Shown here: in pieces, positions 429 to 27,777 of the stretch
Layout: each line of letters starts with the position of its first letter
Numbering within the stretch: position 1 is the stretch's first letter
Assembly: GCA_902627635.1 (NCBI GenBank)
Contig: CACOKA010000001.1
Location: 34,778 to 98,777, forward strand
Direction: 5' to 3'
DNA: 64,000 bases
Origin: an uncultured Candidatus Actinomarina sp.
Lineage (GTDB): Bacteria > Actinomycetota > Acidimicrobiia > Actinomarinales > Actinomarinaceae
The notes under the pieces: model-generated
Told to the model about the DNA's origin: nothing
Databases searched by the model: none
What the model saw: only the letters and a program-made list of their open reading frames with translations
Program-made: the position numbers and the translations under genes

Positions 429-435
429 TAGGATA

Positions 436-1050: not shown

Positions 1051-1051
1051 A

Positions 1052-1579: not shown

Positions 1580-1880
1580 AGTAACCTCTGATTGGTATCT
1601 AACACTTTCAGCAATCCTTTTTTCTATAGGCTTTTTAGGAATGATGGTAAGAAAAAATGCATTGATAATGTTTATGTGTATTGAGCTCATGCTAAATGCT
1701 GTTAATTTAACTTTTATTACAGCGTCGAAGCATCTTGGATCTGTCGATGGACAGATCGCAGTATTTTTTGTTCTTGTTGTTGCAGCTGCAGAGGTAGTGG
1801 TAGGTCTGGCAATTATTGTTTCTATATTTAAAAAGCAAGAATCAGCGTCAGTCGATATGTTAAGTTCCTCGAAGGGATAG
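1566..1880 (+). CDS. nuoK: NADH-quinone oxidoreductase subunit K
   Basis: 104 aa, 3 TM, ND4L-like ([25 protein letters not shown]). Confidence 0.9.
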
Positions 1881-1882
1881 TT

Positions 1883-10964: not shown

Positions 10965-11678
10965 TCAGCTTACAAATACCCTTTTTGCAATAAATTTATC
11001 AATCCCAAAATAATCACTTTTATTAGTACTAATTGTTATTGAATAATCTCCTGCATCTGCAACGACTACCTCTGTACCTGGAAGCATTTCATGAGTCTGT
11101 AGAAAATCTATCATTGAAGCATCTTTTTTTAATTCTTCGGTTATTTTCTCAATTGAGTATTTTTTATTTGATTCTACATTTAACAAATTTTCCATCTTTT
11201 TTTCTTGATAGTTTGAGTATGGTATTGGATTACCGAATGGACCTGTATTTGGATATCCAAGTAACTTAAGCATTGCTTTTTCTGTAACAGGGCTTAAAAC
11301 ATTTTCCCATCTTGAAGTTTCCTCGTAAACTTTGTCCCAAGGTAAATTTAAAACTTCTGAAAGAAATCTTTCGGTAATTCTATGCCTTCTTGAAATACAT
11401 TTTGCTAGGCATAAGCCAGTGTCGGTAAGCTCTAGACTATCATTTAATTTAATCAAACCACTATTTTGCATTCTCCCAACCACCTGGGAAACATTTGCTC
11501 TACTAACACCGATCCACTCGGCAACTCTTGTTTGTTTTATTTCAATTCCAACTTCTTGTAAGTGAAATATTGCTTCTGCATGGGTATAAAAAGACTTTGG
11601 AAATTTTTCAATTTCTTCATGACTTAAAATCAGCTCATCATTTGGGCTATTCGGTGAATTTAGTTCATCTATTTGCAT
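10965..11678 (-). CDS. Metal (Fe/Mn)-dependent transcriptional repressor, DtxR/IdeR family with a C-terminal SH3-like (FeoA) domain
   Basis: HTH RVAEWIGVSRANVSQVVGRMQNSGLI. The metal-site region RHRITERFLSEVLNLPWDKVYEETSRWENVLSPVTE aligns with DtxR (RLAERLLTDIIGLD...EACRWEHVMSDEVE). PFGNPIP motif present. Confidence 0.85.
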   Translation of the reverse strand: MQIDELNSPNSPNDELILSHEEIEKFPKSFYTHAEAIFHLQEVGIEIKQTRVAEWIGVSRANVSQVVGRMQNSGLIKLNDSLELTDTGLCLAKCISRRHRITERFLSEVLNLPWDKVYEETSRWENVLSPVTEKAMLKLLGYPNTGPFGNPIPYSNYQEKKMENLLNVESNKKYSIEKITEELKKDASMIDFLQTHEMLPGTEVVVADAGDYSITISTNKSDYFGIDKFIAKRVFVS

Positions 11679-11727
11679 ATTGTAATTATGTTAACAGGTA
11701 TTAACATTTTAGCTATTTAAAGGGTTT

Positions 11728-11960: not shown

Positions 11961-13007
11961 TTAAGCAGTTTTCAAAGCTCTAACTTTAATTTTTTTTGCA
12001 TCTTCTACAATTGACACAAGCAGATCTATAGTCTCATTAGAATCATTCAAACAAGGTATATAAGTCATTTTTTCTCCACCTGAATCCATAAATGTTTTTC
12101 TTCCTCTAATGTCAATTTCTTCTAATGTTTCAAGACAATCAGATATAAAAGATGGACACAAAACACCAACGGATTTTGCTCCTTCTGAGGGTAAAACCTC
12201 TAGTCTTTTGTCTGTAAAAGGAGTCAACCATCCCGGCCCAATCCTTGATTGGTAGGCAATTTCCCATTCAGAAGTTTTTAATCCTAACTCTTTTGCAATC
12301 AAAATTGAAGACTGAACTGTGTGTGCTTTGTAACAATCTGCAGATCCAAGGCTTTCAACTTCGCAACAGTCATTACTTTCAAAACAGTGGGACCCTGTTT
12401 CATCTGTCTTTCTTGCCTGTCGCTTTGGTATACCGTGATAGCTAAATATTAATTTATCAAAATTATGCTCTAACAAATATTTTCTTACACCTTTGGATAT
12501 AGCTTTTATGTATTTCTCATTTTTATAAAAAGGTTTGATAAAATTTAATTCGGCCTCTGGAAAAACTTTATTAGCAAGTCTCTCTACTTCAACCTTCGTT
12601 GTGATTGTAGTTGCCATTGCATTATGAGGATATAATGGCACAACATATATTTTATTAAATCCATTTAGTTTCAAATTATTTAATGCTAATTCAATACTGG
12701 GATCTTCATATCTCATTGCAATCTCAACATGCCAACCAGTCTTTTTAATAAGTTTATTTTTAATGTTTAAGGTAGAAATAATTAAAGGAGACCCAGCATT
12801 TGTCCAAATTTGTTCATAAGCGTGAAGTGTTTGTTTTGGTCTAAAAGGAAGAATGAATAACTTAAGGATTAATTGCTGTAGAAATTTAGGAATATCAACA
12901 ACATAATCATCTGAAAGAAAAACATCTAAATACTTTCTTACGCTTTTTTTATCAAGTTTTTTTGGAGAACCTAAATTTACTAATAATACTGCTTCTTTTG
13001 ATTTCAT
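11961..13007 (-). CDS. hemH: Ferrochelatase
   Basis: LLVNLGSP N-terminus and a YQSRIGPGWLTP...CPSFISDCLETLEEI C-terminal region typical of HemH. Confidence 0.9.
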   Translation of the reverse strand: MKSKEAVLLVNLGSPKKLDKKSVRKYLDVFLSDDYVVDIPKFLQQLILKLFILPFRPKQTLHAYEQIWTNAGSPLIISTLNIKNKLIKKTGWHVEIAMRYEDPSIELALNNLKLNGFNKIYVVPLYPHNAMATTITTKVEVERLANKVFPEAELNFIKPFYKNEKYIKAISKGVRKYLLEHNFDKLIFSYHGIPKRQARKTDETGSHCFESNDCCEVESLGSADCYKAHTVQSSILIAKELGLKTSEWEIAYQSRIGPGWLTPFTDKRLEVLPSEGAKSVGVLCPSFISDCLETLEEIDIRGRKTFMDSGGEKMTYIPCLNDSNETIDLLVSIVEDAKKIKVRALKTA

Positions 13008-13097: not shown

Positions 13098-14258
13098 TTG
13101 TTAACTACTATTAACAGTATACAAGCTAATAAAGGAATTAAATTGAACAAAAAATTTATTGCTTTGATTTCTGTAATGCTTATGGTTTTTGCAGCATGTG
13201 CTTCCGAAGGTGAGCAAGGCGCACAAGGACCAGCAGGTGAAGCAGGTCCAGCAGGTCCTGCAGGTGAAGTTTCACAGGAAGCAATTGATGCTGCTGTTGA
13301 AGCTGCATTAGCTGAGCCTGAAGCAGAAGTTGGAGGAACACTTGTTATCTATAGTGGTAGAAAAGAAAGTTTAGTTGCTGATGTAATTGCAGCTTTTGAA
13401 GCTTCTTCTGGTGTAGATGTTGAGGTTAGATATGCAAAGAGTGCTGCCTTAGCAGGAACACTAGAGCTTGAAGGAGCAATTAGTCCAGCTGACGTATTTT
13501 TCTCACAAGATCCGGTAAGTCTTGGTGTAGTTGCCAAAGCAGGTTTATTTGATAGATTACCAGCTGACTTATTAGACAATGTTCCATCATGGGCTGTTGA
13601 TAGAAATGGTTTTTGGGTTGGTACATCAGGAAGGTCACGATCATTGGTTGTTGACACTAGAGATGTAACTGATGCAGAGATGCCAAGTGATATCTATGGT
13701 CTAGCAGATGAAAAGTTTAGAAATAGATTAGGGCTAGCACCAACAAACTCATCATTTATTGCAATGATTGCTTGCATGATTGAGTCTGATGGTGAAGAGA
13801 AAGTTCTAGAGTGGTTAACCGCTATTAATGGACTTGGATATACAGAATATCCAAAGAACTCTCCACAAGTTGCTGCGGCAGATGCTGGTGAGTTAGACAT
13901 TGGAATGATTAATCACTATTACACATTGAGGGTAGTTGCTGAAAATGGTGACAGTCCTGTTAAAAATGTGTACTTAGATGGTGGTTGTGGCGCTATGGTT
14001 ATGCCAGCAGGTGCAGGTGTTTTGGCTACAAGTCAAAACAAACCAGCTGCTTTAGCATTTATTGAGTTTTTACACTCAACAAGTGCTCAAGAGCATTTTA
14101 CTAATACTGTTTATGAGTTCCCTCTCGTTGCAGGTATAACACCAAACGCTTTACTTCCAGATATTGACAGTTTAAATTCTCCATCGAATTTGAACTGGTC
14201 AGCGCTATCACTTTGGCAGGAAAAAGCTGTCGAATTGATTGCGCAAGCAGGTTTCTAG
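13098..14258 (+). CDS. Fe(3+)-type ABC transporter periplasmic substrate-binding lipoprotein (FbpA/AfuA-like)
   Basis: Signal peptide plus lipobox (VFAACAS). The TLVIYSGRKESL motif is typical of the iron(III)/thiamine SBP family. It is followed by a fused two-domain permease and an ATPase. TTG 13143 is a possible alternative start. Confidence 0.75.
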   Translation: MLTTINSIQANKGIKLNKKFIALISVMLMVFAACASEGEQGAQGPAGEAGPAGPAGEVSQEAIDAAVEAALAEPEAEVGGTLVIYSGRKESLVADVIAAFEASSGVDVEVRYAKSAALAGTLELEGAISPADVFFSQDPVSLGVVAKAGLFDRLPADLLDNVPSWAVDRNGFWVGTSGRSRSLVVDTRDVTDAEMPSDIYGLADEKFRNRLGLAPTNSSFIAMIACMIESDGEEKVLEWLTAINGLGYTEYPKNSPQVAAADAGELDIGMINHYYTLRVVAENGDSPVKNVYLDGGCGAMVMPAGAGVLATSQNKPAALAFIEFLHSTSAQEHFTNTVYEFPLVAGITPNALLPDIDSLNSPSNLNWSALSLWQEKAVELIAQAGF

Positions 14259-14297
14259 TCAGTCATTAAATTAACTAGTAAGCTCGAAACCGAATAG

Positions 14298-14337
14298 AAT
14301 TCTGGCCAGGGGTTTCTCTGGCCAGAATTTTTCTTTT
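14298..14337 (+). terminator. Intrinsic terminator/attenuator between the SBP and permease genes
   Basis: Perfect 12-bp stem AATTCTGGCCAG / CTGGCCAGAATT with an 8-nt loop, followed by TTTTCTTTT. Confidence 0.55.
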
Positions 14338-14369
14338 AATAATTCAAAATCAAAGATATCCTTAATAAT

Positions 14370-15926
14370 GTGAAAATTCCTAAAAGTTTAATTTCAATAA
14401 ATTCATTTATATTGATAACTTTTTTAGCACCTGTAATTTATATGCTGTGGAGATTTATCAATTTCTCAAGATCTCTTGGAAGCTTTTTTCAATCTTGGGA
14501 CGTTTTTGGACTACTTTTTAATACAATTTCAGTATTCGTTGCCGTGGTGTTTTCAAGTCTTTTTATCGGATTATTGATATCCATTATTACTGTTAGGTTT
14601 GAATTTCCAGGATCAAAAATTATGTTCACTTTATGTGCACTTCCCTTAGTCATCCCTTCATATATAGGTGCTTTAACTTATATTTCTGCATTTTCTCCTA
14701 AGGGATTATTCGTTCAAATTTTTAGTAGTTTTGGATTAGATGAAATTAGGGGTATTGAGGGATTTCTTGGTAGCTGGCTTGTTTTGACATTATTTACCTA
14801 TCCATATGTTCAACTTATTTGTAGTAGTGCTTTAAGAAACTTGGACTCAACTGTTGAAGATGCAGCAAGATCATTAGGTGTAAACCAATTAAAAGTTTAT
14901 ACAAATGTTGTTATTCCAAGATTGAAAAAACCAATAATTTATTCTGGCCTGTTAGTTGGACTCTATGTAATTTCAGATTTTGGAGCAGTTTCTTTGATGA
15001 GATACTCCACTGTTACTAAAGCAATTTATGCGTATTATGAATTCAGCATTCTTGGGGATCCAGTAATCTTTTATTCAAGCCTTCTTATTGTCTTGGCTTT
15101 GATCATAAGTTTCGTACAAAGAGGTTCTGCAACCTCAAGATCTGCAAAAGTCTCAGGAACCCCAAGAATACCAAAAAAAATAACATTAGATAGAAACGGT
15201 AAAATAATAATTTATTCTTTCTTAGGGTTTGTAATCTTTCTTGGACTTGTAATACCAATATCAGTTTTAAGTTTTTGGTTATTTAGAGGTATTTATTATG
15301 GTAATGATGTTAGTTCATCGCTTCCAGGAATTTTTGGTTCTTTCTCAGCAGCCATTGTAACCTCTATATTTGCCATCATTATTTCAATGCCAATAGTCAT
15401 ATTAATTTCTCAATATAAATCAAGATTTGGGGATATACTCGAAAAACTTATGTTGTCTCTGTATGGTTTACCACATCTTGCTGTTGGAGTTTCAATATTA
15501 TTTATATCTGTGAAAATATTTCCAAGCGTATACCAAAGTTTTTTCGCACTTGTAATTTCATATTTGATTGTTTTTCTTCCTCAAGCGATTGGTGGGGGCC
15601 AAGCATCAATGGAACAAGTAAAGTCCTCATATATTGAAGCAAGTCTTGGTTTAGGTCAATCTAAAATCGATACATTCAGAAAAATTACATTTCCATTAAT
15701 TTATAGAGGCTTATTTGCAGGGGGAGCGCTTGTTTTTCTATCTACAATGAAAGAACTTCCACAAACTCTTTTATTAAGACCAACTGAATTTAACACAATG
15801 GCAGTTGATGTATGGTCTTTTGCATCAGAAGCATTATTTACCCAAGCTGCATTTTCTGCCTTTATATTGTTGGCAATAAGTGCAATCCCTACTTATATAT
15901 TAAGTACAAGGAATTTAACAGTTTAA
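14370..15926 (+). CDS. Fe(3+) ABC transporter permease (fused two-domain, FbpB-like)
   Basis: 518 aa with about 12 TM helices in two ABC TM1 modules (EAA-like loops) in the SBP-permease-ATPase operon. Confidence 0.85.
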   Translation: MKIPKSLISINSFILITFLAPVIYMLWRFINFSRSLGSFFQSWDVFGLLFNTISVFVAVVFSSLFIGLLISIITVRFEFPGSKIMFTLCALPLVIPSYIGALTYISAFSPKGLFVQIFSSFGLDEIRGIEGFLGSWLVLTLFTYPYVQLICSSALRNLDSTVEDAARSLGVNQLKVYTNVVIPRLKKPIIYSGLLVGLYVISDFGAVSLMRYSTVTKAIYAYYEFSILGDPVIFYSSLLIVLALIISFVQRGSATSRSAKVSGTPRIPKKITLDRNGKIIIYSFLGFVIFLGLVIPISVLSFWLFRGIYYGNDVSSSLPGIFGSFSAAIVTSIFAIIISMPIVILISQYKSRFGDILEKLMLSLYGLPHLAVGVSILFISVKIFPSVYQSFFALVISYLIVFLPQAIGGGQASMEQVKSSYIEASLGLGQSKIDTFRKITFPLIYRGLFAGGALVFLSTMKELPQTLLLRPTEFNTMAVDVWSFASEALFTQAAFSAFILLAISAIPTYILSTRNLTV

Positions 15927-15928
15927 AA

Positions 15929-16954
15929 ATGGTTTTTGATAATTTAATTATAAGAGCAAGATCCCTTTCAAAATCTTATGGTACAGAAAATGTACTAACT
16001 GACTTTAATATTGACATTTGGTATGGATCAATATTTGGGATTTTAGGTGTTTCAGGCTCTGGTAAAACAACTGCATTGAGATTACTTGCTGGGTTTGAAA
16101 ATCCAGATAACGGAACAATTGAAATGCATAACAAAGTTATCTTTGATGAGAAAACAAACATTCCACCTGAAGAAAGAAAAATCGGTATGGTTTTTCAAGA
16201 TTATGCTTTATTTCCTCATTTAACAGTTGAAAAAAATATTGCTTTTGGTTTAAACAGAGAAGAAATAAAAAATGGAAGACTTGATGAAGTAATTAGTATG
16301 ACAAATTTAAATTCATACAGGAATAAATATCCACAAGATATCTCTGGAGGGCAACAACAAAGAGTAGCACTAGCAAGAGCCTTAGCCCCAAAGCCAGAGG
16401 TAATATTGTTGGACGAACCCTTCACAAGTCTAGATGCACAGATGGCAAGAGATCTTAGAGAAGAAGTAGTTTCTTTGCTCAGAGCAACAAAAACAACAGG
16501 AATTATAGTTACTCATGACCAGGAAGAAGCACTTTCAGTTTGTGATATTGTTAGTGTCCTCGAAAATGGAAAAGTAATTCAAAGTGCTACTCCGCAAGAA
16601 ATATACCTTAATCCAATAAGTCAAACTGTTGCAAACTCCGTAGGAGACCCAAATATCATAAAAGGAATTTCAACTAATGGTAGAGTTAAAACTTCTCTAG
16701 GTACCTTTAATTCAGCCTACGATGGAGAATTAGATGTATCAATAAGGCCAGAGTGTATAGAAGTAAATCTAGATTCTAAAGGTGATTATATTGTAAAAGA
16801 ATGTATTTTCTATGGTCATGATCAAGTTATCTCGTTTGAAAATAAAAATGGTGAGGTTTTCAGAGCAAGATCTTTGCCCTCAATGATTTTTGAACCAGGT
16901 GACAAAGTGTGTATTGATGTAACTGAAGTTACAACGTTTCCCTCAAAGAACTGA
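15929..16954 (+). CDS. Fe(3+)/polyamine-type ABC importer ATP-binding protein (FbpC-like)
   Basis: Walker A GVSGSGKTT, signature LSGGQQQRVALARAL, Walker B ILLDEPFTSLD, plus a C-terminal TOBE-like domain. The true ATG at 15929 is in frame with track ORF 15812..16954. Confidence 0.9.
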   Translation: MVFDNLIIRARSLSKSYGTENVLTDFNIDIWYGSIFGILGVSGSGKTTALRLLAGFENPDNGTIEMHNKVIFDEKTNIPPEERKIGMVFQDYALFPHLTVEKNIAFGLNREEIKNGRLDEVISMTNLNSYRNKYPQDISGGQQQRVALARALAPKPEVILLDEPFTSLDAQMARDLREEVVSLLRATKTTGIIVTHDQEEALSVCDIVSVLENGKVIQSATPQEIYLNPISQTVANSVGDPNIIKGISTNGRVKTSLGTFNSAYDGELDVSIRPECIEVNLDSKGDYIVKECIFYGHDQVISFENKNGEVFRARSLPSMIFEPGDKVCIDVTEVTTFPSKN

Positions 16955-17164
16955 ATTAATTTCTGCAATTCTTCCCGCAATAATTTGAAGATTACTCTCA
17001 ATTTCAGCCAATCTTGCCTGAGCTCTTTTGTTTGAATTTTCAGATATAAACTCTCTTGAAGAAGATAGAGATTTAGAAATATCATTAATTTCATTGAGAA
17101 TTTTTTCAATTTCTTGGTAAATTTCTTGTTTATTCATATTTTGGTAGATGTTTGTAAATTCCAT
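16943..17164 (-). CDS. Hypothetical 73-aa coiled-coil protein, divergent from the heliorhodopsin gene
   Basis: ORF with heptad-like charged/hydrophobic periodicity. No recognisable family. Confidence 0.3.
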   Translation of the reverse strand: MEFTNIYQNMNKQEIYQEIEKILNEINDISKSLSSSREFISENSNKRAQARLAEIESNLQIIAGRIAEINSVL

Positions 17165-17176
17165 ATTAATATGTGA

Positions 17177-18001
17177 GTGTCAAAGGGGGAAAATTTGATA
17201 TCTGAAAAAATCGGAAAACTTAGACGTTTTAACATCATCATGGGCTTCATGCATCTCATACAGGGTTCGGCATTGTTTTGGTTAGGAACTGTAGTCAATT
17301 CTGATTTTGTAGTCCCTATAACTCTTACACAACTAGTGGGCGAGGGTAGTCCAAATGACCCGTCATCATTTGCTCTAGTACCAAAACTTGAAATTTGGAG
17401 AGAGGTAACAAATTTTGGTCCAGCAGTAGCAACATTTTTATTAGCATCTGCAGTTGCACATTTTCTAATCTCAGGCCCTTTTTATGATAAATACAAAGAA
17501 GATCTTGGAAAAGGAATCAACAAGGTTCGTTGGATTGAATACTCAATAAGTGCATCGGTAATGATAGTTTTAATTGCACTGTTGGTAGGTATTTATGATA
17601 TCTGGGCATTACTAGGTATATTTTTTATGAATGCTGCAATGTGTTGGTTTGGATGGATGATGGAAGTCAACAATCAGTACACTGATAGAGTTGATTGGAC
17701 AAGCTATATCATGGGTTGTCTCGTTGGTGTTGCGCCATGGATTTTTATATTTATCAATTTAATTGGGGATGGTGTCGCAACAGACTCAAATCCACAAGGT
17801 GTACCGCAGTTTGTTGTTTGGATATTTGTAAGCATATTTCTATTCTTCAACACCTTTTCAATAAACATGGTCCTCCAATATAAAGGTGTAGGAAAATGGA
17901 AAGATTATCTTTATGGTGAGAGAGCATATATATGGCTTAGCTTATTAGCAAAGACAGCTCTTGCCTGGCAAGTATTTTTTGGAACTTACCAACCAAATTA
18001 A
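17177..18001 (+). CDS. Heliorhodopsin (inverted-topology microbial rhodopsin)
   Basis: 274 aa, 7 TM. Close match to my memory of heliorhodopsin 48C12: VRWIEYSISASVMIVLIA, and the C-terminal QYKGVGKWKDYLYGERAYIWLSLLAKTALAWQVFFGT with the TM7 lysine. GTG start. Confidence 0.8.
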   Translation: MSKGENLISEKIGKLRRFNIIMGFMHLIQGSALFWLGTVVNSDFVVPITLTQLVGEGSPNDPSSFALVPKLEIWREVTNFGPAVATFLLASAVAHFLISGPFYDKYKEDLGKGINKVRWIEYSISASVMIVLIALLVGIYDIWALLGIFFMNAAMCWFGWMMEVNNQYTDRVDWTSYIMGCLVGVAPWIFIFINLIGDGVATDSNPQGVPQFVVWIFVSIFLFFNTFSINMVLQYKGVGKWKDYLYGERAYIWLSLLAKTALAWQVFFGTYQPN

Positions 18002-18008
18002 ATTACTT

Positions 18009-18030
18009 GATTTTTCTAAATAGAAAAATC
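18009..18030. terminator. AT-rich palindrome between convergent heliorhodopsin and AlkP-like genes (possible bidirectional terminator)
   Basis: GATTTTTCTA-AA-TAGAAAAATC forms a 10-bp perfect inverted repeat. The stem is AT-rich and therefore weak. Confidence 0.25.
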
Positions 18031-18076
18031 ATGATTATTAAGACAAACATCATACCTATATAAGACAAAACCATAA

Positions 18077-19162
18077 TTAATTTACTATTTCAATCAAGGG
18101 AATATAAACCTCTGTCTTAGAAAGTCCTCCGTGATACCCTTTTAAGTTTGCACTTAGATGATTTGGAAAAATTATGTTTCCCTCATCTAGAAGAAAAATT
18201 TGCTCTGGATAAAAATTTTCTATATCTTCATTAGTAGCTGTACCTAATAAAGAGATTATTTCTTCTTTTTCTAAAAAATACCCTGGAACGTTCTTGAATA
18301 CTTTTTCAATGCTTTCAACATCCCCATTTATATATACTGCTCTTTGATCGCCATAAATTTTTACAGATTCATCATATTCAAGTCTAAATTTGTTTTGGTC
18401 TTCAATATTAACCACTCCATGGTCAGCAGTTATGCACGTATATCTATTTGAATCTATTTTTATCATTCTTGATAAAAATTCTGAAAAGATATTTACTTCA
18501 TTTCGCCATTCGTCACTATTTGTTCCATATACGTGTGCTGCAACATCAATCACTGGATAATATATGTAATTAAAGTGATTATCTAATATTTCGGATAAAG
18601 ATAAAATATTCTCAAGTTCATTTAAATTTTCATAGCCTATTTGATTCGCACCCATATATATGTGATCAGATAGAGGGCTACCGATTAAATTTTTTGGTTG
18701 AATAACATTGAAATTAATTTTATTTTGACTCAATATATTCCAAATAGTTTTTTGGGAAGAGAAAAAATCATTATTTTTTAAGTAAGTTTCAGAACCTTTC
18801 CAATTTAAGGTATTGATTAATTTATTTTCCTGTTTAGCAAAATGAAAATAACCAATCAAACCATTATCTATTGGTTTAGAAGCAAAATTAATTGAACTTA
18901 AGGCAACACTTGTAGAGCTAGGAAACGTAGAGACTATCTCATCGGTTTGGTTATTGGTAAATAAATTATCTAAATTTTCGATATTTTTGCTACCTAAGCC
19001 ATCAACTAAAATAAAGTTTATTTTTTTGATTGATTGATCGTACTTCTTTAGGACTAATTTTTGGTTAACATTAAATATCTTTTCTGAACAAATGTTATTG
19101 ATTAATACCTGTACAAGATCTGTTAGATTTGGAGAATCTAGAAAAAAATTATTTTTATCCAT
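18077..19162 (-). CDS. Alkaline-phosphatase superfamily protein (type I phosphodiesterase/nucleotide pyrophosphatase-like)
   Basis: Metal-ligand motifs ILVDGLGS near the N-terminus and ITADHG further in, typical of the AlkP/ENPP-like fold. Confidence 0.65.
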   Translation of the reverse strand: MDKNNFFLDSPNLTDLVQVLINNICSEKIFNVNQKLVLKKYDQSIKKINFILVDGLGSKNIENLDNLFTNNQTDEIVSTFPSSTSVALSSINFASKPIDNGLIGYFHFAKQENKLINTLNWKGSETYLKNNDFFSSQKTIWNILSQNKINFNVIQPKNLIGSPLSDHIYMGANQIGYENLNELENILSLSEILDNHFNYIYYPVIDVAAHVYGTNSDEWRNEVNIFSEFLSRMIKIDSNRYTCITADHGVVNIEDQNKFRLEYDESVKIYGDQRAVYINGDVESIEKVFKNVPGYFLEKEEIISLLGTATNEDIENFYPEQIFLLDEGNIIFPNHLSANLKGYHGGLSKTEVYIPLIEIVN

Positions 19163-19238
19163 AAAAAAATTTTACAAAAGAATTCCTCTGAAGTTTGAAA
19201 TAAAACTAAACTTTTTATGAGCATACTAAAGTTATTAT

Positions 19239-19604
19239 ATGATTTCTTATTTTCAGGATTACGTTACTGTTGGGGCAATGATAGGTCTCGGACTTGTCTT
19301 GTTTCTAGTTTTTATTTCCGTATCTGCATTACTTAGTCCCAAAAAACCAACTCCAGAAAAAGTTAAAACATACGAGTGCGGAGTAGATCCAGTAGGTGGT
19401 GGATGGAGCCAAACTTATGTTAGATACTATATATTTGGTTTATTATTTGTAATTTTTGACGTTGAGGCAGTATTTATTTTTCCATGGGCACTGAATCTAG
19501 AAAATCTTGGATACTTTGGCTTGGTTGAAATGTTTATCTTTATTTTTATTCTCTTACTTGGTTTGATATATGCAATTAGAAAGGATGTCCTCAAATGGGA
19601 GTAA
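19239..19604 (+). CDS. nuoA: Complex I subunit A (second, 11-subunit operon)
   Basis: 121 aa, 3 TM, YECG motif, [12 protein letters not shown]. Confidence 0.85.
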
Positions 19605-20092
19605 TTGAAAAGTTTGGTATCCCAAAGCCTATTTCTAAAATATTGAATTGGGCAAGAGCATATGATATGTGGTATTTCCAATTTGGTTTAGCATGCTGTG
19701 CCATTGAAGTTATGGCAGCAAGTGGACCAAGACACGATTTTATGAGATTAGGTATAATTCCACTTCCTGCATCGCCAAGACAAGCTGACCTAATGGTGGT
19801 TGCAGGTACCGTAACCGATAAAATGGCCCCAGCAGTCAAAAGATTATATGACCAAATGCCGGAACCAAAGTATGTAATTTCAATGGGTTCATGTTCAAAC
19901 AGTGGGGGACCGTATTGGGATTCTTACTCTGTTACAAAAGGTGTAGATCAATTAATTCCAGTAGACGTTTATGTTCCCGGATGTCCACCAAGACCAGAAG
20001 CTTTGCAAGAAGGAATAGTTTTATTACAGAAAAAAATAAAAGGTGAAGATATGAAAGAAAAGTGGAGAGAAAAAGACATTGAACCAGTCTGA
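19595..20092 (+). CDS. nuoB: Complex I subunit B (N2 [4Fe-4S] carrier)
   Basis: Cys ligands present: [18 protein letters not shown]. Confidence 0.9.
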
Positions 20093-20639
20093 TCAAAACG
20101 AATTCGTAAATTCAATTCAAAGTAAATTTCAAAATTCATCAGTTGAATTTGATACATTAAAAATTGAAGTAGATTCTCAGTCTTGGGTTGATACGCATAA
20201 GACATTGAAAGCAGAATTTAATTTAAAATTTTTTAATTGGCTATCTGCTGTTGACTGGGATAACGATGTAAAAATTGGTGACGCACCAAAAGAATCAGTA
20301 ATCCCAAGTTTTGAAATAATAAGTTGTTTATCAAAAACAAATTCTGACGACTTAGTTATATCATCTACAAAGATTTCAAAAGAGGAACCACAGATTGATT
20401 CATTAGTTGAAGTTTTTGGTGGAGCGAACTGGCATGAAAGAGAAGCTTATGAAATGTTTGGTATAAATTTCTTGAACCATCCAAATTTAAAGAAACTTTA
20501 TCTTCCTGATGCTTATGAAGGGAATCCTTTACTTAAATCATTTGAGTTGATAAGTAGAGAAGTTAAACCTTGGCCAGGTGAAGTTGATGTAGAAGGTATG
20601 CCAGAAGATAACAACGTAGTCTCAGAAGAGGGTAGCTAA
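20079..20639 (+). CDS. nuoC: Complex I subunit C (30-kDa subunit family)
   Basis: 186 aa with ERE(A/V)YDMFG-like motif [13 protein letters not shown]. Separate from nuoD (not a fused C-D). Confidence 0.8.
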
Positions 20640-21835
20640 TGGCTCAAACGATGGATCCAAACAATATGCCAATTTTATCTGAAGCATCAGTTTCTGTTGA
20701 AATTGAAACAGAAGATATGACTTTAAATATTGGTCCTCAACATCCTTCGACTCACGGTGTTTTAAGGTTAGTAGCTAAAATTAATGGAGAAAAAATATCC
20801 AGTGTTGAACCTGTGCTTGGATATATGCATAGAGGATATGAGAAACTTGCAGAAGTAAGAACTTATCCACAAGTAACAACATTAGTAAATAGAATTGACT
20901 GGGTTTCAGGTTTTGCGAATGAGATTCCATTTATCGCTGGTGCTGAAAAATTAATGGAAATCGAAGTACCTGAAAGAGCACAATACATCAGACTGATTTT
21001 GACAGAAATGGCAAGAATAAGCTCCCACTTTGTTTTTAACGGTGCTTTCCCACTTGAGATTGGTGCACTAACACCTATATTTTTAGCTATGGAAGATCGA
21101 GAAAGAGTTCTTGATTTGCTCGAATCTGTTACTGGTGGAAGATTTCATCCAAACTTTAATCGAATCGGTGGGGTAAAACCTGCCGCAGGTGCTGGGCCAA
21201 CAACAAAAAAAGATATACAGGATTTACCAGCAGGTTTTTATCACGATACCAAAGTTGCAATGCAAAAAGTTCTCGAAGCTGTTGATAGATTTGAAGATTT
21301 AATTGGCGGAAATGAAGTATTTCAACTTAGAACAAAGAATGTTGGTATATTACCAAAAGAAGTTGCGGAAGAGTACGGAGTATCTGGCCCAATATTGAGA
21401 GCATCTGGTGTTGAGTTTGATTTGAGAAAACAATCAAATTACTTACCATATGACAAATTTGACTTTGAAATACCAATTGGTGAAAATGGTGACTGTTTCG
21501 ATAGATGGGCTGTAAGAACATCCGAAATGAGAGAATCTGCAAAAATTATTTTACAAGCAATTGAAGACATGCCTTCTGGGCCAATCCAAGCAAAAGTACC
21601 AAAAGTTATAAAAGTTCCAAAAGGACAAACATATGTAAGAGCAGAAAATCCTAAGGGTGAAATGGGATATTATATAATTTCTGAAGGTGGTTTAGGGCCT
21701 TATAGGTTAAAAATAAGAACAGCTTCATTTAGTAACATATCAATTTTGCCAATAATGCTTGAAGGAGCATTGCTTCCTGACTTGATAGCAATAATGGGTA
21801 GTTTAGATTTTGTTCTTGGAGATGTAGATAGATGA
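20639..21835 (+). CDS. nuoD: Complex I subunit D (49-kDa/NiFe-hydrogenase large-subunit-like)
   Basis: NIGPQHPSTHGVLRLV N-terminal motif. 398 aa. Confidence 0.9.
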   Translation: MAQTMDPNNMPILSEASVSVEIETEDMTLNIGPQHPSTHGVLRLVAKINGEKISSVEPVLGYMHRGYEKLAEVRTYPQVTTLVNRIDWVSGFANEIPFIAGAEKLMEIEVPERAQYIRLILTEMARISSHFVFNGAFPLEIGALTPIFLAMEDRERVLDLLESVTGGRFHPNFNRIGGVKPAAGAGPTTKKDIQDLPAGFYHDTKVAMQKVLEAVDRFEDLIGGNEVFQLRTKNVGILPKEVAEEYGVSGPILRASGVEFDLRKQSNYLPYDKFDFEIPIGENGDCFDRWAVRTSEMRESAKIILQAIEDMPSGPIQAKVPKVIKVPKGQTYVRAENPKGEMGYYIISEGGLGPYRLKIRTASFSNISILPIMLEGALLPDLIAIMGSLDFVLGDVDR

Positions 21836-22812
21836 GTTTTAGTACCGAATTACTTATCAAAGTTTTGGTTGTTTTAGCTACAGCTCCAGCAATGGCCTTA
21901 GGGCTTACTTTGCTGGAGGTTAAAGGTTCTGCCTGGATGCAAAGAAGACCAGGTCCTCTTCATGTTGGTTTAAGAGGATTTATATTTCCACTTGCAACAG
22001 CTGCAAAATATTTACAAAAGGAAACAATCATTCCAAATGATGTTGATGAGCCTGTATTTAAGTGGGCACCAGCTTGGGTTATAGCAGCTGTAGTAGGCCT
22101 TTTTACAATTATTCCATTAAGTCCCACGTTAATTGTTCGTGATCTGGAATTAGGAGTCTTCTTTTTACTTGCAATCAGCTCCATCTCTACTATTGGAGTT
22201 CTTACAGCTGGATGGTCCTCTGCAAACAAATTTTCTCTAATGGGTGGTTTAAGAGCAGCAGGCCAACTTATTGCCTATGAATTACCACTAATTTTATCTG
22301 TAGTTGGTGTAGTTATACAAGCTGAAACTATGTCAACAGTTGGAATAGTAGAAAAACAGATTGAATTTGGATTTCCTTTTGTAATTGCAGGACAGGGTAT
22401 TGCTTTTATTATTTTTATGATTGCAGCAACTGCTGAAATGATGAGAACACCATTTGATATGCCAATTGGTGAATCTGAATTAACTATGGGCTTTTTTACA
22501 GAATATTCTGGGATTAGATTTCTTATTTTTTATATTTCTGAATACATAAATTTATTTGTAATGTGTGCGATTGCCTCAACTCTTTTCTTAGGAGGTTATC
22601 ATGTACCACTTTTACCTACTGAATGGGTTAACTTTTATGGTCCATTGGTTCTAATTGGAAAGACATTTTTACTTGCATTTATCCTTATTGCTATAAGATG
22701 GTCTTTCCCACGATTCAGGGAAGATCAACTTCAGACCCTTGCTTGGAAAGTCCTTATACCACTCTCTCTTTTGAATATAATGGTTACAGCAATCATGAAA
22801 GTTGTTTTTTGA
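21832..22812 (+). CDS. nuoH: Complex I subunit H. It directly follows nuoD, with no nuoE/F/G in between
   Basis: 326 aa with ND1 motifs (GLRGFIFPLA, TMGFFTEYSGIRF). Its start overlaps the nuoD stop by 4 nt. Confidence 0.9.
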   Translation: MSFSTELLIKVLVVLATAPAMALGLTLLEVKGSAWMQRRPGPLHVGLRGFIFPLATAAKYLQKETIIPNDVDEPVFKWAPAWVIAAVVGLFTIIPLSPTLIVRDLELGVFFLLAISSISTIGVLTAGWSSANKFSLMGGLRAAGQLIAYELPLILSVVGVVIQAETMSTVGIVEKQIEFGFPFVIAGQGIAFIIFMIAATAEMMRTPFDMPIGESELTMGFFTEYSGIRFLIFYISEYINLFVMCAIASTLFLGGYHVPLLPTEWVNFYGPLVLIGKTFLLAFILIAIRWSFPRFREDQLQTLAWKVLIPLSLLNIMVTAIMKVVF

Positions 22813-23297
22813 TGCAAAAATTCAAACCAAGGATTCCTGGATTTTTAACTGGACTTAAAATTGTCATTGGCAATATGTTTAAAACCCTTCTTCCTTTTTT
22901 TGAAAATCCTAATGTAAATTATCCTTTTGAAAAAGAAATACTCGCACCTAGAACTAGGGGTGTCATCGCTTTAGATTCTGAAGCATGTACAAGTTGCATG
23001 TTGTGTGCAAGATCTTGTCCAGACTGGTGCATTTACATAGAGGGTCACAAAGAGTTACAACCTCCTTCAAAGCCAGGAGGACGTCAGAGAAGTAGAGCGG
23101 TACTCGATCGGTTTGACATTGATTATGCACTTTGTATGTATTGTGGGATATGTGTTGAAGTATGCCCATTTGATGCATTGTTTTGGTCACCTGAATACGA
23201 ATATTCAGAATTTTCTATGGGCGATATGCTCCATGACAAAGATAGGCTTGATGAATGGCTAAAGACTGTTCCTGAAGGTCCAGGTTTAGAGAACTAA
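22812..23297 (+). CDS. nuoI: Complex I subunit I (2x[4Fe-4S])
   Basis: CTSCMLCARSCP and CMYCGICVEVCP motifs. ATG at 22812 overlaps the nuoH TGA (tgATG) and is in frame with track ORF 22698..23297. Confidence 0.85.
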   Translation: MQKFKPRIPGFLTGLKIVIGNMFKTLLPFFENPNVNYPFEKEILAPRTRGVIALDSEACTSCMLCARSCPDWCIYIEGHKELQPPSKPGGRQRSRAVLDRFDIDYALCMYCGICVEVCPFDALFWSPEYEYSEFSMGDMLHDKDRLDEWLKTVPEGPGLEN

Positions 23298-23815
23298 TGG
23301 AAGCAATAGACATATTTTCATACTTTCTTTTGCTGTTGCTTTTACTTAGTGGAGTAAAAGTTGTGACAACATCAAATGTTATACACGCTGCCATATTTTT
23401 AGTTTTTACTCTTGCTACCACTGCTGTTTTATTCATATTATTATCGGCTGAATTTGTAGCTTTAGTCCTAATACTTGTATATATAGGTGCAGTTATTGTT
23501 TTATTTTTATTTGGTGTGATGATCACAAGAGCTCCTTTAGGTCCAAATGCTGAACTAGATAATGATCAAAATAAATTATTGGCTGCTGTCATATCATTTT
23601 CAATTTTTGGAATATTTACTTATATTCTTCTACAAACTTTTGATTCAACAGTAGTTATAAGCGAAGGAACATCTACGAAACTATTAGGAGAAATTTTGTT
23701 AAGTAGATTTGTGTTTCCTTTTGAGCTGGTTTCATTTGTTTTGTTAGGAGCTTTAATTGGTGGCATTACATTAGCAAGAAAAGATAATGCATTAATGGAT
23801 GAAGATCAAATATGA
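23297..23815 (+). CDS. nuoJ: Complex I subunit J
   Basis: 172-aa membrane protein between nuoI and nuoK. Confidence 0.8.
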   Translation: MEAIDIFSYFLLLLLLLSGVKVVTTSNVIHAAIFLVFTLATTAVLFILLSAEFVALVLILVYIGAVIVLFLFGVMITRAPLGPNAELDNDQNKLLAAVISFSIFGIFTYILLQTFDSTVVISEGTSTKLLGEILLSRFVFPFELVSFVLLGALIGGITLARKDNALMDEDQI

Positions 23816-24117
23816 GCATTCAACCATTACTGATTGCAGCAGCAGCTTTATTCTCTATAGGTATTTATGGAATTCTTGTAAGAAGAAACGCAGTAATGGT
23901 TTTACTGTCAATTGAGCTGATTCTTAATTCGGTAAACATAAATTTTGTAGCATTCAACGCTATGCTTTCAGATGTTTTTTTAAATGGCCAGATTTTTTCA
24001 ATTTTCATTATCACTATTGCAGCAGCAGAAGTTGGTATTGGATTAGCTATTGTTCTTATGCTTTTTAGAAATCGAGAAACAGCCAATATAAATGAATTTG
24101 ATTTAATGAAATGGTAA
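23812..24117 (+). CDS. nuoK: Complex I subunit K
   Basis: 101 aa, ND4L-like (SIELILNSVNINF, AAAEVGIGLAIV). Confidence 0.85.
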   Translation: MSIQPLLIAAAALFSIGIYGILVRRNAVMVLLSIELILNSVNINFVAFNAMLSDVFLNGQIFSIFIITIAAAEVGIGLAIVLMLFRNRETANINEFDLMKW

Positions 24118-26129
24118 ATCAAAATTTTATAAATTTTCTTGCTGAAGGTCAGCCAGAATATACTGATGGTGGTGTACTCGCTGAATTTACTTGGTTGATT
24201 GTTGTACTTCCATTCTTAGCTGCAATTTTGATTACTTTTTTTGGAAAATATCTACCATTACAAGGTGCAGAGCTAGCTTTAGGAACAGTTTTATTCATAT
24301 TTTCATATAGCGCAGCTTTACTTTATCAGCACGCGACAAAAGGAATCGCCAATGAATTTTTTATCAACGTAGGAAGTATTGGTTCTTATGATCTTGAGTT
24401 TGGCTGGGTCGTTGATGGATTATCTATCATGATGTACTTCGTAGTTGGAACTGTTTCATCTTTAGTTTTCATATATGCAACAAATTATATGCAAGGTGAA
24501 ATAAGATATACTTTCTTTTTCACATCACTCACATTATTTGCTGGGAGTATGTTAGTTTTAGTTTCTTCTCCAACACTTTTGCAATTGTTGATTGGTTGGG
24601 AATTAGTTGGAGTTTGTTCATATCTACTAATTGGTCATTACTGGGAAAAAAAGGAAAATTCTTCCGCAGCGATGAAAGCATTTATAACTAATAAAATTGC
24701 TGATGTCGGGTTAATGATTGGAATCATTGTTCTTGCTTTATCAACAAAAACCTTGAGAATTTCTGAGATATTGTATCAATCAACTCATGATTATGCAGAT
24801 ATCAAAACTGTGGCATATTTAGGTGGAGTTCTTCTTTTTATAGGTGCAATGGGAAAGAGTGCTCAATTTCCACTTCATGTTTGGTTGCCTGATGCAATGG
24901 CAGGCCCAACACCAGTATCTGCTTTAATGCATGCAGCAACAATGGTCACCGCGGGTGTCTATCTTCTTGGTCGGATGTTTCCTTTCTACCAGGGAATGGC
25001 ATCACAAGCACTGGATATAGTTCTTTTATTCGGAGTAATTACACTTCTTGGAGCAGGATTAGTCGCTGTAGTTCAAGATGATCTCAAAAAAGTTCTTGCA
25101 TATTCTACAGTAAGTCAACTTGGTTACATGGTTACAGCAATGGGTTCAGGTGCATACACTGCGGGTCTTTTTCACCTATGGACTCATGCATTTTTTAAAG
25201 CTTTATTATTTTTAGGTGCTGGCTCGGTAATTCATGCAGTGCACACAAATAACATGTCTGAAATGGGTGGACTAAGGAAAGAAATGCCCAGAACATTTTC
25301 AACCTTCATTATTGGAACTGTAGCCCTTGCTGGACTTCCTCCATTAGCTGGATTTTTCTCAAAAGATGAGATACTCGCATCACTCAATCACGAAGGGCAT
25401 AATTTATATTTTATTATTTCTGTTCTTGGAGCCTTTATCACTGCGTTTTACATGACAAGAGCAGTTCTTTTAACATTTTTTGGTGACTATCGGGGTGATG
25501 GACACCCTCACGAATCTGACAAGATGATGACAATTCCATTGATAATATTATCAGGATTTGCCATTGTTGCAGGATGGGCAAACATACCTGGTGTTTATAC
25601 AGGATTTACAAAATGGGTTACAACAAGGAAAAATTACATTGTAGAATATCACCCTGAATCATTTGATTTGGTTGCTATGTTCAGTGGTCTTACATCTGGA
25701 CTTTTGGGTATTGGACTTGCCTACTACGTCTATCAGATGTCAGGAAATGCAACTGACGGCGATGAAAAAATTAAAATAAAACCAATATGGAATTTATTGG
25801 AAAATAAATACTACTTAGATTTCTTCTACTTCAAATTCATAATTGATCCTGTAAAAATAACTTTTGCTAAATTTGTTGACTCATTTAATTCAAATGTCCT
25901 TGATCGGTTTGTTAATGGTGTTGGGACAACTGCTTCAAAAGCAGGCGGAATTGTATATACAAATCTTGACCAAGGAGGCATTGACAAAGTACTTAATTTA
26001 TCATCAACAGGTACAGACACTATTGGAAGTAAAGTCAAATTAATTCAAACTGGTAAAACTCAACAATACTTAATGTATTTTTTAATAGGAGTGATAGTTA
26101 TTAGCTTAATAATTTTGTTAGTGTTATGA
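24111..26129 (+). CDS. nuoL: Complex I subunit L
   Basis: 672 aa with WLPDAMAGPTPVSALMHAATMVTAGV and QLGYMV. The long C-terminal horizontal-helix region is present. Confidence 0.9.
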   Translation: MVNQNFINFLAEGQPEYTDGGVLAEFTWLIVVLPFLAAILITFFGKYLPLQGAELALGTVLFIFSYSAALLYQHATKGIANEFFINVGSIGSYDLEFGWVVDGLSIMMYFVVGTVSSLVFIYATNYMQGEIRYTFFFTSLTLFAGSMLVLVSSPTLLQLLIGWELVGVCSYLLIGHYWEKKENSSAAMKAFITNKIADVGLMIGIIVLALSTKTLRISEILYQSTHDYADIKTVAYLGGVLLFIGAMGKSAQFPLHVWLPDAMAGPTPVSALMHAATMVTAGVYLLGRMFPFYQGMASQALDIVLLFGVITLLGAGLVAVVQDDLKKVLAYSTVSQLGYMVTAMGSGAYTAGLFHLWTHAFFKALLFLGAGSVIHAVHTNNMSEMGGLRKEMPRTFSTFIIGTVALAGLPPLAGFFSKDEILASLNHEGHNLYFIISVLGAFITAFYMTRAVLLTFFGDYRGDGHPHESDKMMTIPLIILSGFAIVAGWANIPGVYTGFTKWVTTRKNYIVEYHPESFDLVAMFSGLTSGLLGIGLAYYVYQMSGNATDGDEKIKIKPIWNLLENKYYLDFFYFKFIIDPVKITFAKFVDSFNSNVLDRFVNGVGTTASKAGGIVYTNLDQGGIDKVLNLSSTGTDTIGSKVKLIQTGKTQQYLMYFLIGVIVISLIILLVL

Positions 26130-26143
26130 GAGAGTGGTAAATA

Positions 26144-27721: not shown

Positions 27722-27777
27722 AAATTAACATTAATTATTTCGCTATATCAAGTGAATTAATAGTAATCCTAACGATT

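Follow-up and report, generated by a model that had tools for sequence, protein, structure and literature searches.

The window analysed here, a stretch of 64,000 nucleotides of genomic DNA, carries a heliorhodopsin (HeR) gene that is flanked on each side by a gene of the opposite strand. The features on which the interpretation draws are as follows:

45..6728 (+): 3' part of the first nuo operon (nuoH tail, I, J, (K), L, M, N; Pfam)
10965..11678 (-): DtxR-type iron-dependent repressor (NCBIfam DtxR, 127.9 bits, below the 290-bit cutoff)
11961..13007 (-): ferrochelatase hemH (TIGR00109, 226 bits against a cutoff of 124.6)
13098..16954 (+): ABC importer of three genes, upstream of HeR on the same strand, published as an Fe3+ transporter (PMC7771536)
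13098..14258 (+): lipoprotein substrate-binding protein of the importer (Pfam SBP_bac_6/11)
14370..15926 (+): fused double permease of the importer (Pfam BPD_transp_1, twice)
15929..16954 (+): ATPase of the importer (Pfam ABC_tran and TOBE_2)
16943..17137 (-): small64, a soluble helical hairpin of 64 aa, divergent from HeR and sharing 12 nt at its 3' end with the ABC ATPase gene
17182..17189 (+): Shine-Dalgarno-like AAAGGGGG (read from the sequence), 5 nt upstream of the HeR start
17195..18001 (+): HeR coding sequence, 268 aa, likely TTG start (PF18761, NF038020 and PDB matches)
17537..17539 (+): codon for E121, the Schiff-base counterion in TM3
17951..17953 (+): codon (AAG) for K259, the retinal Schiff-base lysine in TM7
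18008..18031 (+): AT-rich perfect 10-bp hairpin directly after the HeR stop
18077..19162 (-): NPP-type (alkaline-phosphatase superfamily) phosphodiesterase-like enzyme, cytoplasmic, 361 aa, convergent with HeR
19239..29205 (+): second nuo operon, nuoA-B-C-D followed by H-I-J-(K)-L-M-N, with no E, F or G (ORFs and Pfam)

Among the bacteria of the surface ocean, Candidatus Actinomarina is very abundant, and its genome is minimal. The window HeR belongs to this host (order Actinomarinales, Acidimicrobiia) and shares 97% amino-acid identity with its counterparts in many Ca. Actinomarina single-cell genomes; the nearest genomes, Ca. Actinomarina / OCS155 (Actinomycetota), place it in a monoderm host, as expected of a heliorhodopsin. 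The Actinomarina HeR gene and its iron and respiratory neighbourhood have been known since 2020, when López-Pérez et al. (mSystems, PMC7771536) reported the Actinomarinales HeR, compared its key residues with those of 48C12 and described the two nuo operons (including the second one detailed above), the Fe3+ ABC transporter, the ferrochelatase and the iron repressor around it. The window HeR differs from theirs in nothing substantive. The present analysis adds the likely TTG start, the divergent orphan gene of 64 aa, a presence/absence polymorphism of a DUF4349 gene, the variable presence of hemH and DtxR, comparisons of evolutionary rate and an explicit test of whether the neighbours are conserved beside other HeRs.

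Identity and constraint of the heliorhodopsin

The mechanical open frame at 17177..18001 (+) reads 274 aa from a GTG codon, while the alignment of 18 loci makes the TTG at 17195 the more likely start. This codon is preferred because AAAGGGGG lies upstream of it and because the HeR genes of other Actinomarina genera have their ATG/GTG starts at the same place in the alignment; in those genera AGGAG or GGGGG stands before the HeR start as the counterpart of AAAGGGGG. Residue numbers (K259, E121 and so on) are given in the 274-aa numbering.

Judged by its sequence, the ORF is a genuine heliorhodopsin. It matches Pfam PF18761 with 300.5 bits (E=9.8e-90, cutoff 26.7) over profile positions 1-241 of 242, its sole Pfam match at E<=0.01, and the NCBIfam HeR equivalog NF038020 with 313.3 bits (cutoff 100; E=1.1e-93). 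Furthermore, all six matches in a sequence search of the PDB are heliorhodopsins (E=5e-66 to 5e-39), among them TaHeR from a Thermoplasmatales archaeon (6is6; E=4.8e-66) and 48C12 (6su3; E=3.5e-58). These scores fully support the original prediction, which had named the gene a heliorhodopsin from two motifs that are both found in the ORF, RWIEYSISASVMIVLIA and YKGVGKWKDYLYGERAYIWLSLLAKTALAWQVFFG; an assignment to type-1 rhodopsins, named there as a result that would speak against it, was not obtained in profile searches of Pfam and NCBIfam.

The alignment to 48C12 and TaHeR that had been suggested as a check extends over the full length at about 50% identity and finds the retinal-pocket residues kept. 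K259 aligns with K241 of 48C12 and with the TM7 lysine of TaHeR, and E121 with the counterion E107 of 48C12; H26, H95, S255 and N115 align with H23, H80, S237 and N101 of 48C12, whose His23/His80 pair lines the Schiff-base cavity. The Schiff-base lysine, glutamate counterion, histidine pair, Ser237 equivalent, proline bulge and fenestration residues are all shared with the two characterised proteins. Out of 35 structurally important 48C12 residues listed by Kovalev et al. (2020), 31 are identical in the window HeR; the four checked positions that differ are R91K, Y179N, Q213M and S242T. The tyrosine at 48C12 position 162 and the methionine at 213 are shared with TaHeR. The lateral fenestration motif is intact (Y177/C181/G184/F224/N225/S228, at 48C12 positions 162, 166, 169, 206, 207 and 210), with its aromatic pair, the Gly169 equivalent and small residues at the equivalents of 166 and 210. 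Departures from TaHeR and 48C12 are found in the first extracellular (A-B) loop, which is longer by about 10-12 residues, and in a longer E-F loop. Seven hydrophobic segments are predicted in silico, collinear with those of the solved HeRs, and 14 Lys/Arg lie on the predicted cytoplasmic (N-in) side against 2 outside, a distribution that fits an inverted topology with the N-terminus inside.

HeR is a core gene that occupies the same place in all Actinomarina loci examined, and its omega (given as about 0.01-0.04 and as 0.013-0.065) indicates very strong purifying selection. Between genera its dN is 0.08-0.12, close to that of nuoB and nuoD, whereas evolution is much faster in small64 (0.35-0.52), in the NPP-like gene (about 0.5) and in the ABC genes (0.11-0.49). 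The Lys/Arg residues of the cytoplasmic loops are conserved; the extracellular loops and C-terminal tail are conserved as strongly as the cytoplasmic loops.

Downstream of the gene, the hairpin at 18008..18031 (fold energy -9.4 kcal/mol, z = -2.74 against shuffles) lies in the 75-nt gap to the convergent gene and is possibly a bidirectional terminator.

Neighbouring genes and their distribution

Both immediate neighbours of HeR are on the opposite strand, and the gene is therefore a stand-alone transcription unit, for which the hairpin behind its stop also speaks. The nearest gene of the same strand encodes the ABC ATPase; its stop codon and the HeR start are about 240 nt apart, and small64 intervenes. 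Owing to this distance and the intervening opposite-strand gene, the ABC genes and HeR do not form an operon. The architecture of the importer fits the FbpABC/AfuABC type, but all its NCBIfam matches fall under the equivalog cutoffs (236.6 against 496 for the ferric ATPase PRK11432), and the best weak matches of the binding protein are to phosphonate, molybdate and thiamine families. Iron is a putative substrate, named on the strength of the published assignment (PMC7771536) and the DtxR/hemH context. The ferrochelatase and DtxR-type regulator were found 4-6 kb upstream of HeR, in agreement with the few kilobases originally given. A gene at the matching position is present in 41 (DtxR) and 26 (hemH) of 46 related loci. 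The DtxR/IdeR operator TWAGGTWAGSCTWACCTWA, searched with up to 3 mismatches, has no match in the window, which accordingly offers no evidence of canonical iron-box control of HeR or the ABC operon. A promoter scan was uninformative, sigma-70-like sites being fewer than in shuffled sequences.

The small ORF upstream had been placed at 16943..17164 (-). Its divergence from HeR holds, but its length does not: comparison of 54 loci makes 64 aa (16943..17137) most likely. It is a real gene and an orphan confined to Actinomarina. It is intact as a 64-65-aa ORF in all 54 Actinomarina loci, has a dN well below dS in close pairs, keeps a core motif (KSLAxSRExIAE...LQxxAG) and is modelled by AlphaFold as two helices (pLDDT 87). 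Relatives recovered by a word-based search all share at least 73% identity, and a profile search of 1.84 billion representative proteins gave 12 matches, namely Actinomarina fragments and one repeat artefact. Pfam at E<=10 returned inconsistent coiled-coil noise alone, and a Foldseek comparison of the model with the PDB gave nothing below E=0.9. The label "methyl-accepting chemotaxis protein" attached to it by one source was rejected, as it rests on an MCPsignal match of E=0.017 in one orthologue only. A gene of 67 aa that diverges from L084, a distant HeR, was considered as a counterpart and proved to encode an unrelated membrane peptide.

The claim of an alkaline-phosphatase-superfamily gene convergent with HeR was borne out. 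The protein matches Pfam PF01663 with 39.6 bits (cutoff 23) and PglZ with 27.5 bits, and D54, T84, D206, H210, D247, H248 and H344, corresponding to two-metal ligands and a threonine nucleophile, are invariant in 34 homologues. A sequence search of the PDB found no match, and a fold search was needed: the AlphaFold model (pLDDT 93.3) has an NPP fold, with ENPP6/5/7 and the Xanthomonas (Xac) NPP as the top Foldseek matches (TM 0.65-0.69); these and ENPP1 are matched at E 1e-17 to 1e-13. The residue pattern and model suggest that the protein is probably an active metalloenzyme. Its gene lies 77 nt from the start of the second nuo operon and directly adjoins HeR, across the 75-nt gap, in the window and 18 related loci. 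HeR and the NPP-like gene are separated by a DUF4349 gene in 35 of 53 Actinomarina loci, so the direct adjacency results from loss of the DUF4349 gene in some lineages. Moreover, a homologue at 27% identity lies in a housekeeping actinobacterial block (topoisomerase, dUTPase, aconitase) with no HeR.

Proposed function and candidate partners

The function of heliorhodopsins is still debated. By analogy with the characterised proteins, the gene is best explained, with reasonable but not strong confidence, as encoding a functional HeR of Ca. Actinomarina that binds retinal, does not pump ions and modulates a partner under the control of light. All-trans retinal would be bound at K259, with E121 as the counterion. 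Since the order is reported to have no retinal synthesis genes (PMC7771536), the retinal would have to be scavenged, and its route of entry may be the conserved lateral fenestration. The ORFs annotated in the window, which between 33.9 and 64 kb were the larger ones, include no carotenoid or retinal gene. Light would bring the protein into a long-lived conformation, and in this state its cytoplasmic loops, rich in Lys/Arg, may bind and modulate a partner protein, with no ion being pumped. Proteins of 45-50% identity are the basis from which retinal binding, the photocycle and the lack of pumping are extrapolated. Partner regulation has been shown for TfHeR with photolyase (PMC9769723) and for OcHeR with OmrDE (PMC11109279), and glutamine synthetase is a further reported partner (PMC9769723, PMC11109279); the window HeR has in common with these systems its family and the conserved positively charged cytoplasmic loops, a type of loop through which partners have been shown to bind.

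Which protein the partner might be cannot be read from the neighbourhood. The HeR-partner operons of the Shim, Cho and Jung groups, in which the target is co-transcribed, are recognised by adjacent genes of the same strand under one predicted promoter, and in the window no candidate stands directly next to HeR in its own orientation. No window neighbour belongs to the ten published groups of HeR neighbours (PMC11109279), bar the loose label "ABC transporter". A second sign of partnership, adjacency that recurs in unrelated lineages and contexts, is likewise absent: none of the window's neighbours, the NPP-like gene and small64 (the latter by local HMM search) included, was found at 36 other HeR loci, which come from archaea, Patescibacteria, Chloroflexi and Acidimicrobiia outside Actinomarina, and the HeR relatives nearest by identity have different neighbours, photolyase included. 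The proposal that the two flanking genes are candidate partners is thus not supported, and the suggested test of their conservation next to HeRs in related genomes finds the arrangement confined to Actinomarina. The genomes of this genus are syntenic across the whole 14-kb locus, and the NPP-like gene, the 64-aa protein, the iron cluster and the nuo adjacency represent the inherited synteny of one genus and are not evidence of a functional link. As this synteny is near-total, adjacency is uninformative either way, and a real link with a neighbour is unsupported rather than disproved.

Light-dependent modulation of the adjacent Fe3+-type importer by direct contact between membrane proteins, analogous to the enhancement of the OmrDE exporter by OcHeR, is unlikely. 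The importer genes lie upstream of HeR on the same strand in 46 of 46 loci spanning the region, with a DtxR-type repressor and hemH nearby, and transporter genes likewise precede helR in the HeR operons that were published as the "ABC transporter" group (PMC11109279). Nevertheless, OmrDE is a heterodimeric type-IV exporter, whereas the window system is an importer dependent on a binding protein; the ABC genes are separated from HeR as described above, and their proteins evolve 2-4 times faster. In addition, FbpABC-like genes adjoin none of the 36 non-Actinomarina HeR loci, and neither a DtxR box nor an NCBIfam score above cutoff links the system to iron.

An equally improbable suggestion is that HeR still works with a DNA photolyase encoded elsewhere in the genome and enhances photorepair, as has been demonstrated for TfHeR (PMC9769723). 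In the most similar HeRs from outside Actinomarina (P0024, 58% identity; P0041, 57%; P0056, 56%), a convergent photolyase gene follows 27-53 nt after HeR, the surroundings being otherwise of two different kinds, and the conserved cytoplasmic-loop Lys/Arg of the Actinomarina protein would suit such a partner. However, the similar HeRs P0030 and P0037 have no photolyase neighbours, no Actinomarina locus has a photolyase gene within 8 kb of HeR, nor does the window contain one, and the Actinomarina photolyase has been reported beside a type-1 rhodopsin instead (PMC7771536). A neighbour-joining tree of 114 HeRs places the Actinomarina proteins on a long branch with no resolved sister group, the photolyase-linked HeRs included, and for this reason photolyase stays a lead only.

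That small64 is a cytoplasmic partner or transducer dedicated to HeR, with both genes driven from one divergent promoter region, is very doubtful. It adjoins HeR divergently, 40-57 nt apart, in 53 of 53 loci, and its purifying selection, core motif and confidently predicted hairpin are those of a genuine protein; nevertheless, such adjacency within a fully syntenic genus carries little information, the gene evolves about 4-5 times faster than HeR and has no informative family or fold match, and its restriction to Actinomarina stands against the wide distribution of HeRs.

The regulatory model is not the sole one available, since some viral HeRs transport protons (PMC11109279) and the case for HeRs as light harvesters with a carotenoid antenna has been made in a 2025 preprint. 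If signalling were purely cytoplasmic, the strong conservation of the extracellular loops and the C-terminus would be left unexplained, and the fenestration and carotenoid-binding motif are intact in a protein that is always encoded between two nuo operons. Even so, a role mainly as a light-harvesting or transport device (a carotenoid antenna or an ion/proton transporter), perhaps feeding the nuo complex that has no E, F and G, is slightly more doubtful still: no pumping has so far been reported for the HeRs of bacteria and archaea that were tested (PMC7771536, PMC11109279, PMC9769723), the proton-transporting viral subfamily does not have the fenestration motif carried by the Actinomarina protein, the preprint is based on docking, and the proximity to nuo is synteny at the level of the genus.

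Finally, regulation of the NPP-like phosphodiesterase by HeR, as originally proposed, is extremely improbable: HeRs are known to regulate soluble enzymes (PMC11109279, PMC9769723) and this one adjoins HeR in the loci counted above, but its gene is on the opposite strand with DUF4349 often intervening, the protein falls to 40-47% identity where HeR keeps 83-92%, a distant homologue of it is found apart from HeR, and it is absent beside other HeRs.

The value of these results for the choice of partners is mostly negative, in that candidates should not be picked by adjacency at the Actinomarina locus; the small gains in annotation are the likely HeR start codon, a real orphan gene of 64 aa and an enzyme with an NPP fold. 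It is decidedly unlikely that HeR forms a lineage-specific light-response module with small64 or the Fe3+-type importer; if it did, light would gate nutrient (iron) uptake or a small soluble transducer in a photoheterotroph that ranks among the most abundant in the ocean. Retention of HeR under strong constraint in a minimal genome suggests that the protein is important to the Actinomarina cell.

Identity, retinal pocket and probable start codon of the heliorhodopsin

The 274-aa open frame at 17177..18001 (+) contains precisely both motifs quoted in the original prediction, and its assignment as a heliorhodopsin (HeR) is borne out by Pfam, NCBIfam and PDB matches, which all agree. Pfam PF18761 (Heliorhodopsin) matches with the whole profile covered (E=9.8e-90, 300 bits), and no second Pfam family was found for the frame. 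The NCBIfam 'HeR' equivalog scores 313 bits (cutoff 100), while heliorhodopsins are the sole matches in a PDB sequence search (TaHeR 6is6, 4.8e-66; 48C12 6su3, 3.5e-58; eukaryotic Cv06 9vfc, 4.6e-39). Numbering was carried over from the reference protein 48C12 via HMMER alignment, with E107 and K241 falling on the expected residues as a self-check; the retinal-pocket residues, including the anticipated TM7 lysine, are present.

Key residues of the window HeR (274-aa numbering)
K259: Schiff-base lysine, aligned with 48C12 K241; codon verified
E121: counterion, aligned with 48C12 E107; codon verified
H26 and H95: cavity histidines, by HMMER alignment to 48C12
S255: equivalent of S237, by HMMER alignment to 48C12
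N115: equivalent of N101, by HMMER alignment to 48C12

Among the 35 structurally important residues of Kovalev et al. (2020), 31 are identical and four differ (R91K, Y179N, S242T and Q213M), Met at position 213 being a frequent variant (Kovalev et al., 2020). The protein also retains the complete lateral-fenestration/carotenoid-site motif defined in a 2025 preprint (Y177, C181, G184, F224, N225, S228). Seven hydrophobic segments are collinear with solved structures, and the predicted distribution of Lys/Arg (14 on the N-terminus-inside face vs 2 outside) is the pattern that marks the inverted topology of HeRs.

The true start is probably TTG 17195 rather than the mechanical start, GTG 17177. 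In an alignment of 18 related loci this TTG coincides with the ATG/GTG starts of other genera, AAAGGGGG lies five bases ahead of it (17182-17189), and the resulting 268-aa protein matches the 267-268 aa of protein-database clusters. Public gene calls begin at Met22, yielding 250 aa and losing the conserved N-terminal KLRRFN segment; such calls (2137-2889 (-) in the related loci L094-L096, equivalent to window 17240-18001) drop the conserved cytoplasmic N-terminus covered by the Pfam profile and are probably a systematic misannotation arising from the TTG start.

Layout and conservation of the locus

The window (G+C ~33%) is core chromosome, since it carries an rpoBC/ribosomal-protein region and a tRNA cluster besides two nuo operons, and its annotation reproduces the layout in López-Pérez et al. 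(2020; PMC7771536).

Gene order in the window
45-6728: nuoH-N
next, in order: ABC-2 exporter pair; thymidine kinase; DUF454 gene
10965..11678 (-): DtxR-type repressor
11961..13007 (-): hemH
13098..16954 (+): three-gene ABC importer
16943..17137 (-): small64, a small gene
17177..18001 (+): HeR
18077..19162 (-): NPP-like gene, alkaline-phosphatase superfamily
19239-29205: nuoABCD-HIJKLMN

That study reported that the key residues of Actinomarina HeR match 48C12, that the order is without retinal biosynthesis genes, that subunits EFG are missing from one nuo copy and that the core genome is ~80%. In the nuo operon beyond HeR, nuoH comes straight after nuoD (20639-22812, +) and nuoE, F and G are absent, matching the published F420-type interpretation of the paralogous complex. 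Since the layout is the same and a 2026 preprint lists Actinomarina HeR, still as 'of unknown function', the locus was already known; new here are annotation details only, beyond a possible link of HeR to small64 or to the ABC importer in this lineage.

Taking one genome per species, HeR identity is 83-97% in 53 Candidatus Actinomarina/OCS155 genomes, against 48-54% for HeRs of archaea, Patescibacteria and Chloroflexi. Few genes at the locus evolve more slowly than HeR (omega 0.013-0.065), its dN between genera (0.08-0.12) being comparable to nuoB, nuoD and thymidine kinase; the neighbours reach 0.35-0.52 (small64), ~0.5 (NPP-like) and 0.11-0.49 (ABC components), a difference that argues, weakly, against tight co-evolution.

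Across the 14-kb region, thymidine kinase, DUF454, the three ABC genes and nuoB each occur in 46/46 spanning loci and nuoA in 45/46, in line with the published core-genome figure. The predicted 'iron/heme-rich' context is constant only in part: the ABC genes occur in every spanning locus (46/46), but DtxR (41/46) and hemH (26/46, on the other strand in two loci, L050 and L053) vary; the 'iron cluster' is a variable patch inside an otherwise rigid locus. A search of the window for DtxR-type operators found none. The DtxR/hemH gap (11679-11960, 282 bp) holds no ORF of at least 110 aa, only a short minus-strand ORF (11731-11874), and is unusually long against the median spacer of 3 bp reported for the genome. 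Compared with a close relative (L001), nucleotide identity over 9000-24000 is 93-98% in the flanks (9000-10500, ~13500-14500, 18000-24000), 80-88% over 10500-13000 (DUF454 to hemH) and 14500-17500 (permease into the first part of HeR), and climbs to 90% across the remainder of HeR, a mosaic that suggests recombination between species.

Between the importer's binding-protein and permease genes lies a 16-bp stem-loop, rich in G+C and with a T-run behind it (14296-14331, +). Such a placement is the classic arrangement yielding excess binding-protein mRNA. The binding protein (13098-14258, +) carries, at residues ~25-60, a lipoprotein-type signal ending in Cys and then a collagen-like Gly-X-X run (GEQGAQGPAGEAGPAGPAGE), which gives a weak Pfam Collagen match and is presumably a flexible tether.

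Flanking genes and candidate partners

ORF scans and family profiles place the flanking ORFs where they had been predicted. Both lie on the opposite strand, small64 divergent (gap 40-57 nt) and the NPP-like gene convergent (gap 75 nt), and an AT-rich 10-bp hairpin directly follows the HeR stop; HeR is therefore a stand-alone unit, lacking the operon arrangement that nominated the experimentally validated HeR partners. The order small64(-), HeR(+), NPP-like(-) is kept in 53/53 Actinomarina loci, but as the whole 14 kb is equally conserved, within-genus adjacency is almost uninformative. None of the window's neighbours was found beside 36 HeR loci outside Actinomarina. On strand, genus-only synteny and this absence, the earlier proposal of the two adjoining genes as partners is not supported.

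Precedents for partner regulation are TfHeR-photolyase (PMC9769723) and OcHeR-OmrDE (PMC11109279), with glutamine synthetase also reported (PMC9769723, PMC11109279). Outside Actinomarina, the HeRs nearest in sequence (56-58% identity) adjoin photolyase, ATP-cone or META-domain genes. Photolyase is convergent, 27-53 nt downstream, beside such HeRs, some of them from Acidimicrobiia MAGs, in two different contexts (6830-8170 (-) in L081-L083 and L092; 956-2299 (-) in L090). Photolyase acting in trans is one of the two leading candidates in Actinomarina, though still an unlikely partner. The upstream ABC importer, syntenic throughout the genus and absent beside the other HeRs, is about equally unlikely. 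In L081-L083 and L092-L093, also Acidimicrobiia, HeR has an ECF sigma/RskA pair 2 kb upstream. At 33909-34873 (+), between tRNA genes, the window has an ECF-type sigma factor gene and, just behind and overlapping it, a 126-aa ORF for a possible anti-sigma factor; the shared presence is probably coincidence.

As a partner, small64 is more doubtful still. The coiled-coil ORF is a real gene, shorter than the predicted 73 aa (16943..17164): an intact 64-65-aa frame with the conserved core KSLAxSRExIAE...LQxxAGxV occurs in 54/54 Actinomarina loci, close pairs have dN of 0.05-0.11 vs synonymous differences of 0.41-0.62, and AlphaFold predicts a two-helix hairpin (pLDDT 87). It shares 12 nt with the 3' end of the ABC ATPase gene. 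No relatives beyond Actinomarina were detected among 1.84 billion representative proteins, and Pfam and fold searches gave no meaningful match; the label 'methyl-accepting chemotaxis protein' in one public source looks like a coiled-coil artefact.

Least credible is the NPP-like enzyme, with only the slightest chance of being the partner. The 361-aa protein is confidently modelled as an NPP-fold enzyme (pLDDT 93; best Foldseek matches ENPP6/5/7/1 and Xanthomonas NPP, TM 0.65-0.69), with metal ligands and Thr nucleophile invariant across 34 homologues. No hydrophobic N-terminal leader was seen by eye, so it is taken as cytoplasmic. A 27%-identical homologue on another actinobacterial contig sits amid topoisomerase, DUF3071, dUTPase and aconitase genes, with HeR absent. 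In 35/53 Actinomarina loci HeR and the NPP-like gene are separated by a gene for a DUF4349 protein of 261-264 aa (for example 8880-9674 (-) in L030 and 8889-9674 (-) in L051), which has a signal-peptide-like N-terminus, a coiled coil and a membrane helix near its C-terminus. Window 18002-18076 lacks this gene, as do the window's lineage in general and a few further ones (L016, L039, L042), a pattern suggestive of repeated loss; direct HeR/NPP-like adjacency is a product of gene loss in some lineages.

Implications for heliorhodopsin function

By analogy with characterised family members, HeR would bind scavenged all-trans retinal at K259 and would not pump, and its long-lived photoproduct may bind and modulate another protein via the Lys/Arg-rich cytoplasmic loops. 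A light-harvesting or transport role is very improbable, marginally more so than a small64 partnership. Actinomarina carries a bona fide, constrained, stand-alone heliorhodopsin, with chromophore pocket and fenestration intact, and its order reportedly cannot synthesise retinal. High conservation extends throughout the protein (transmembrane helices, cytoplasmic loops, long first extracellular loop, E-F loop and C-terminal tail) and, together with the slow evolutionary rate, speaks for an important cellular role of HeR.
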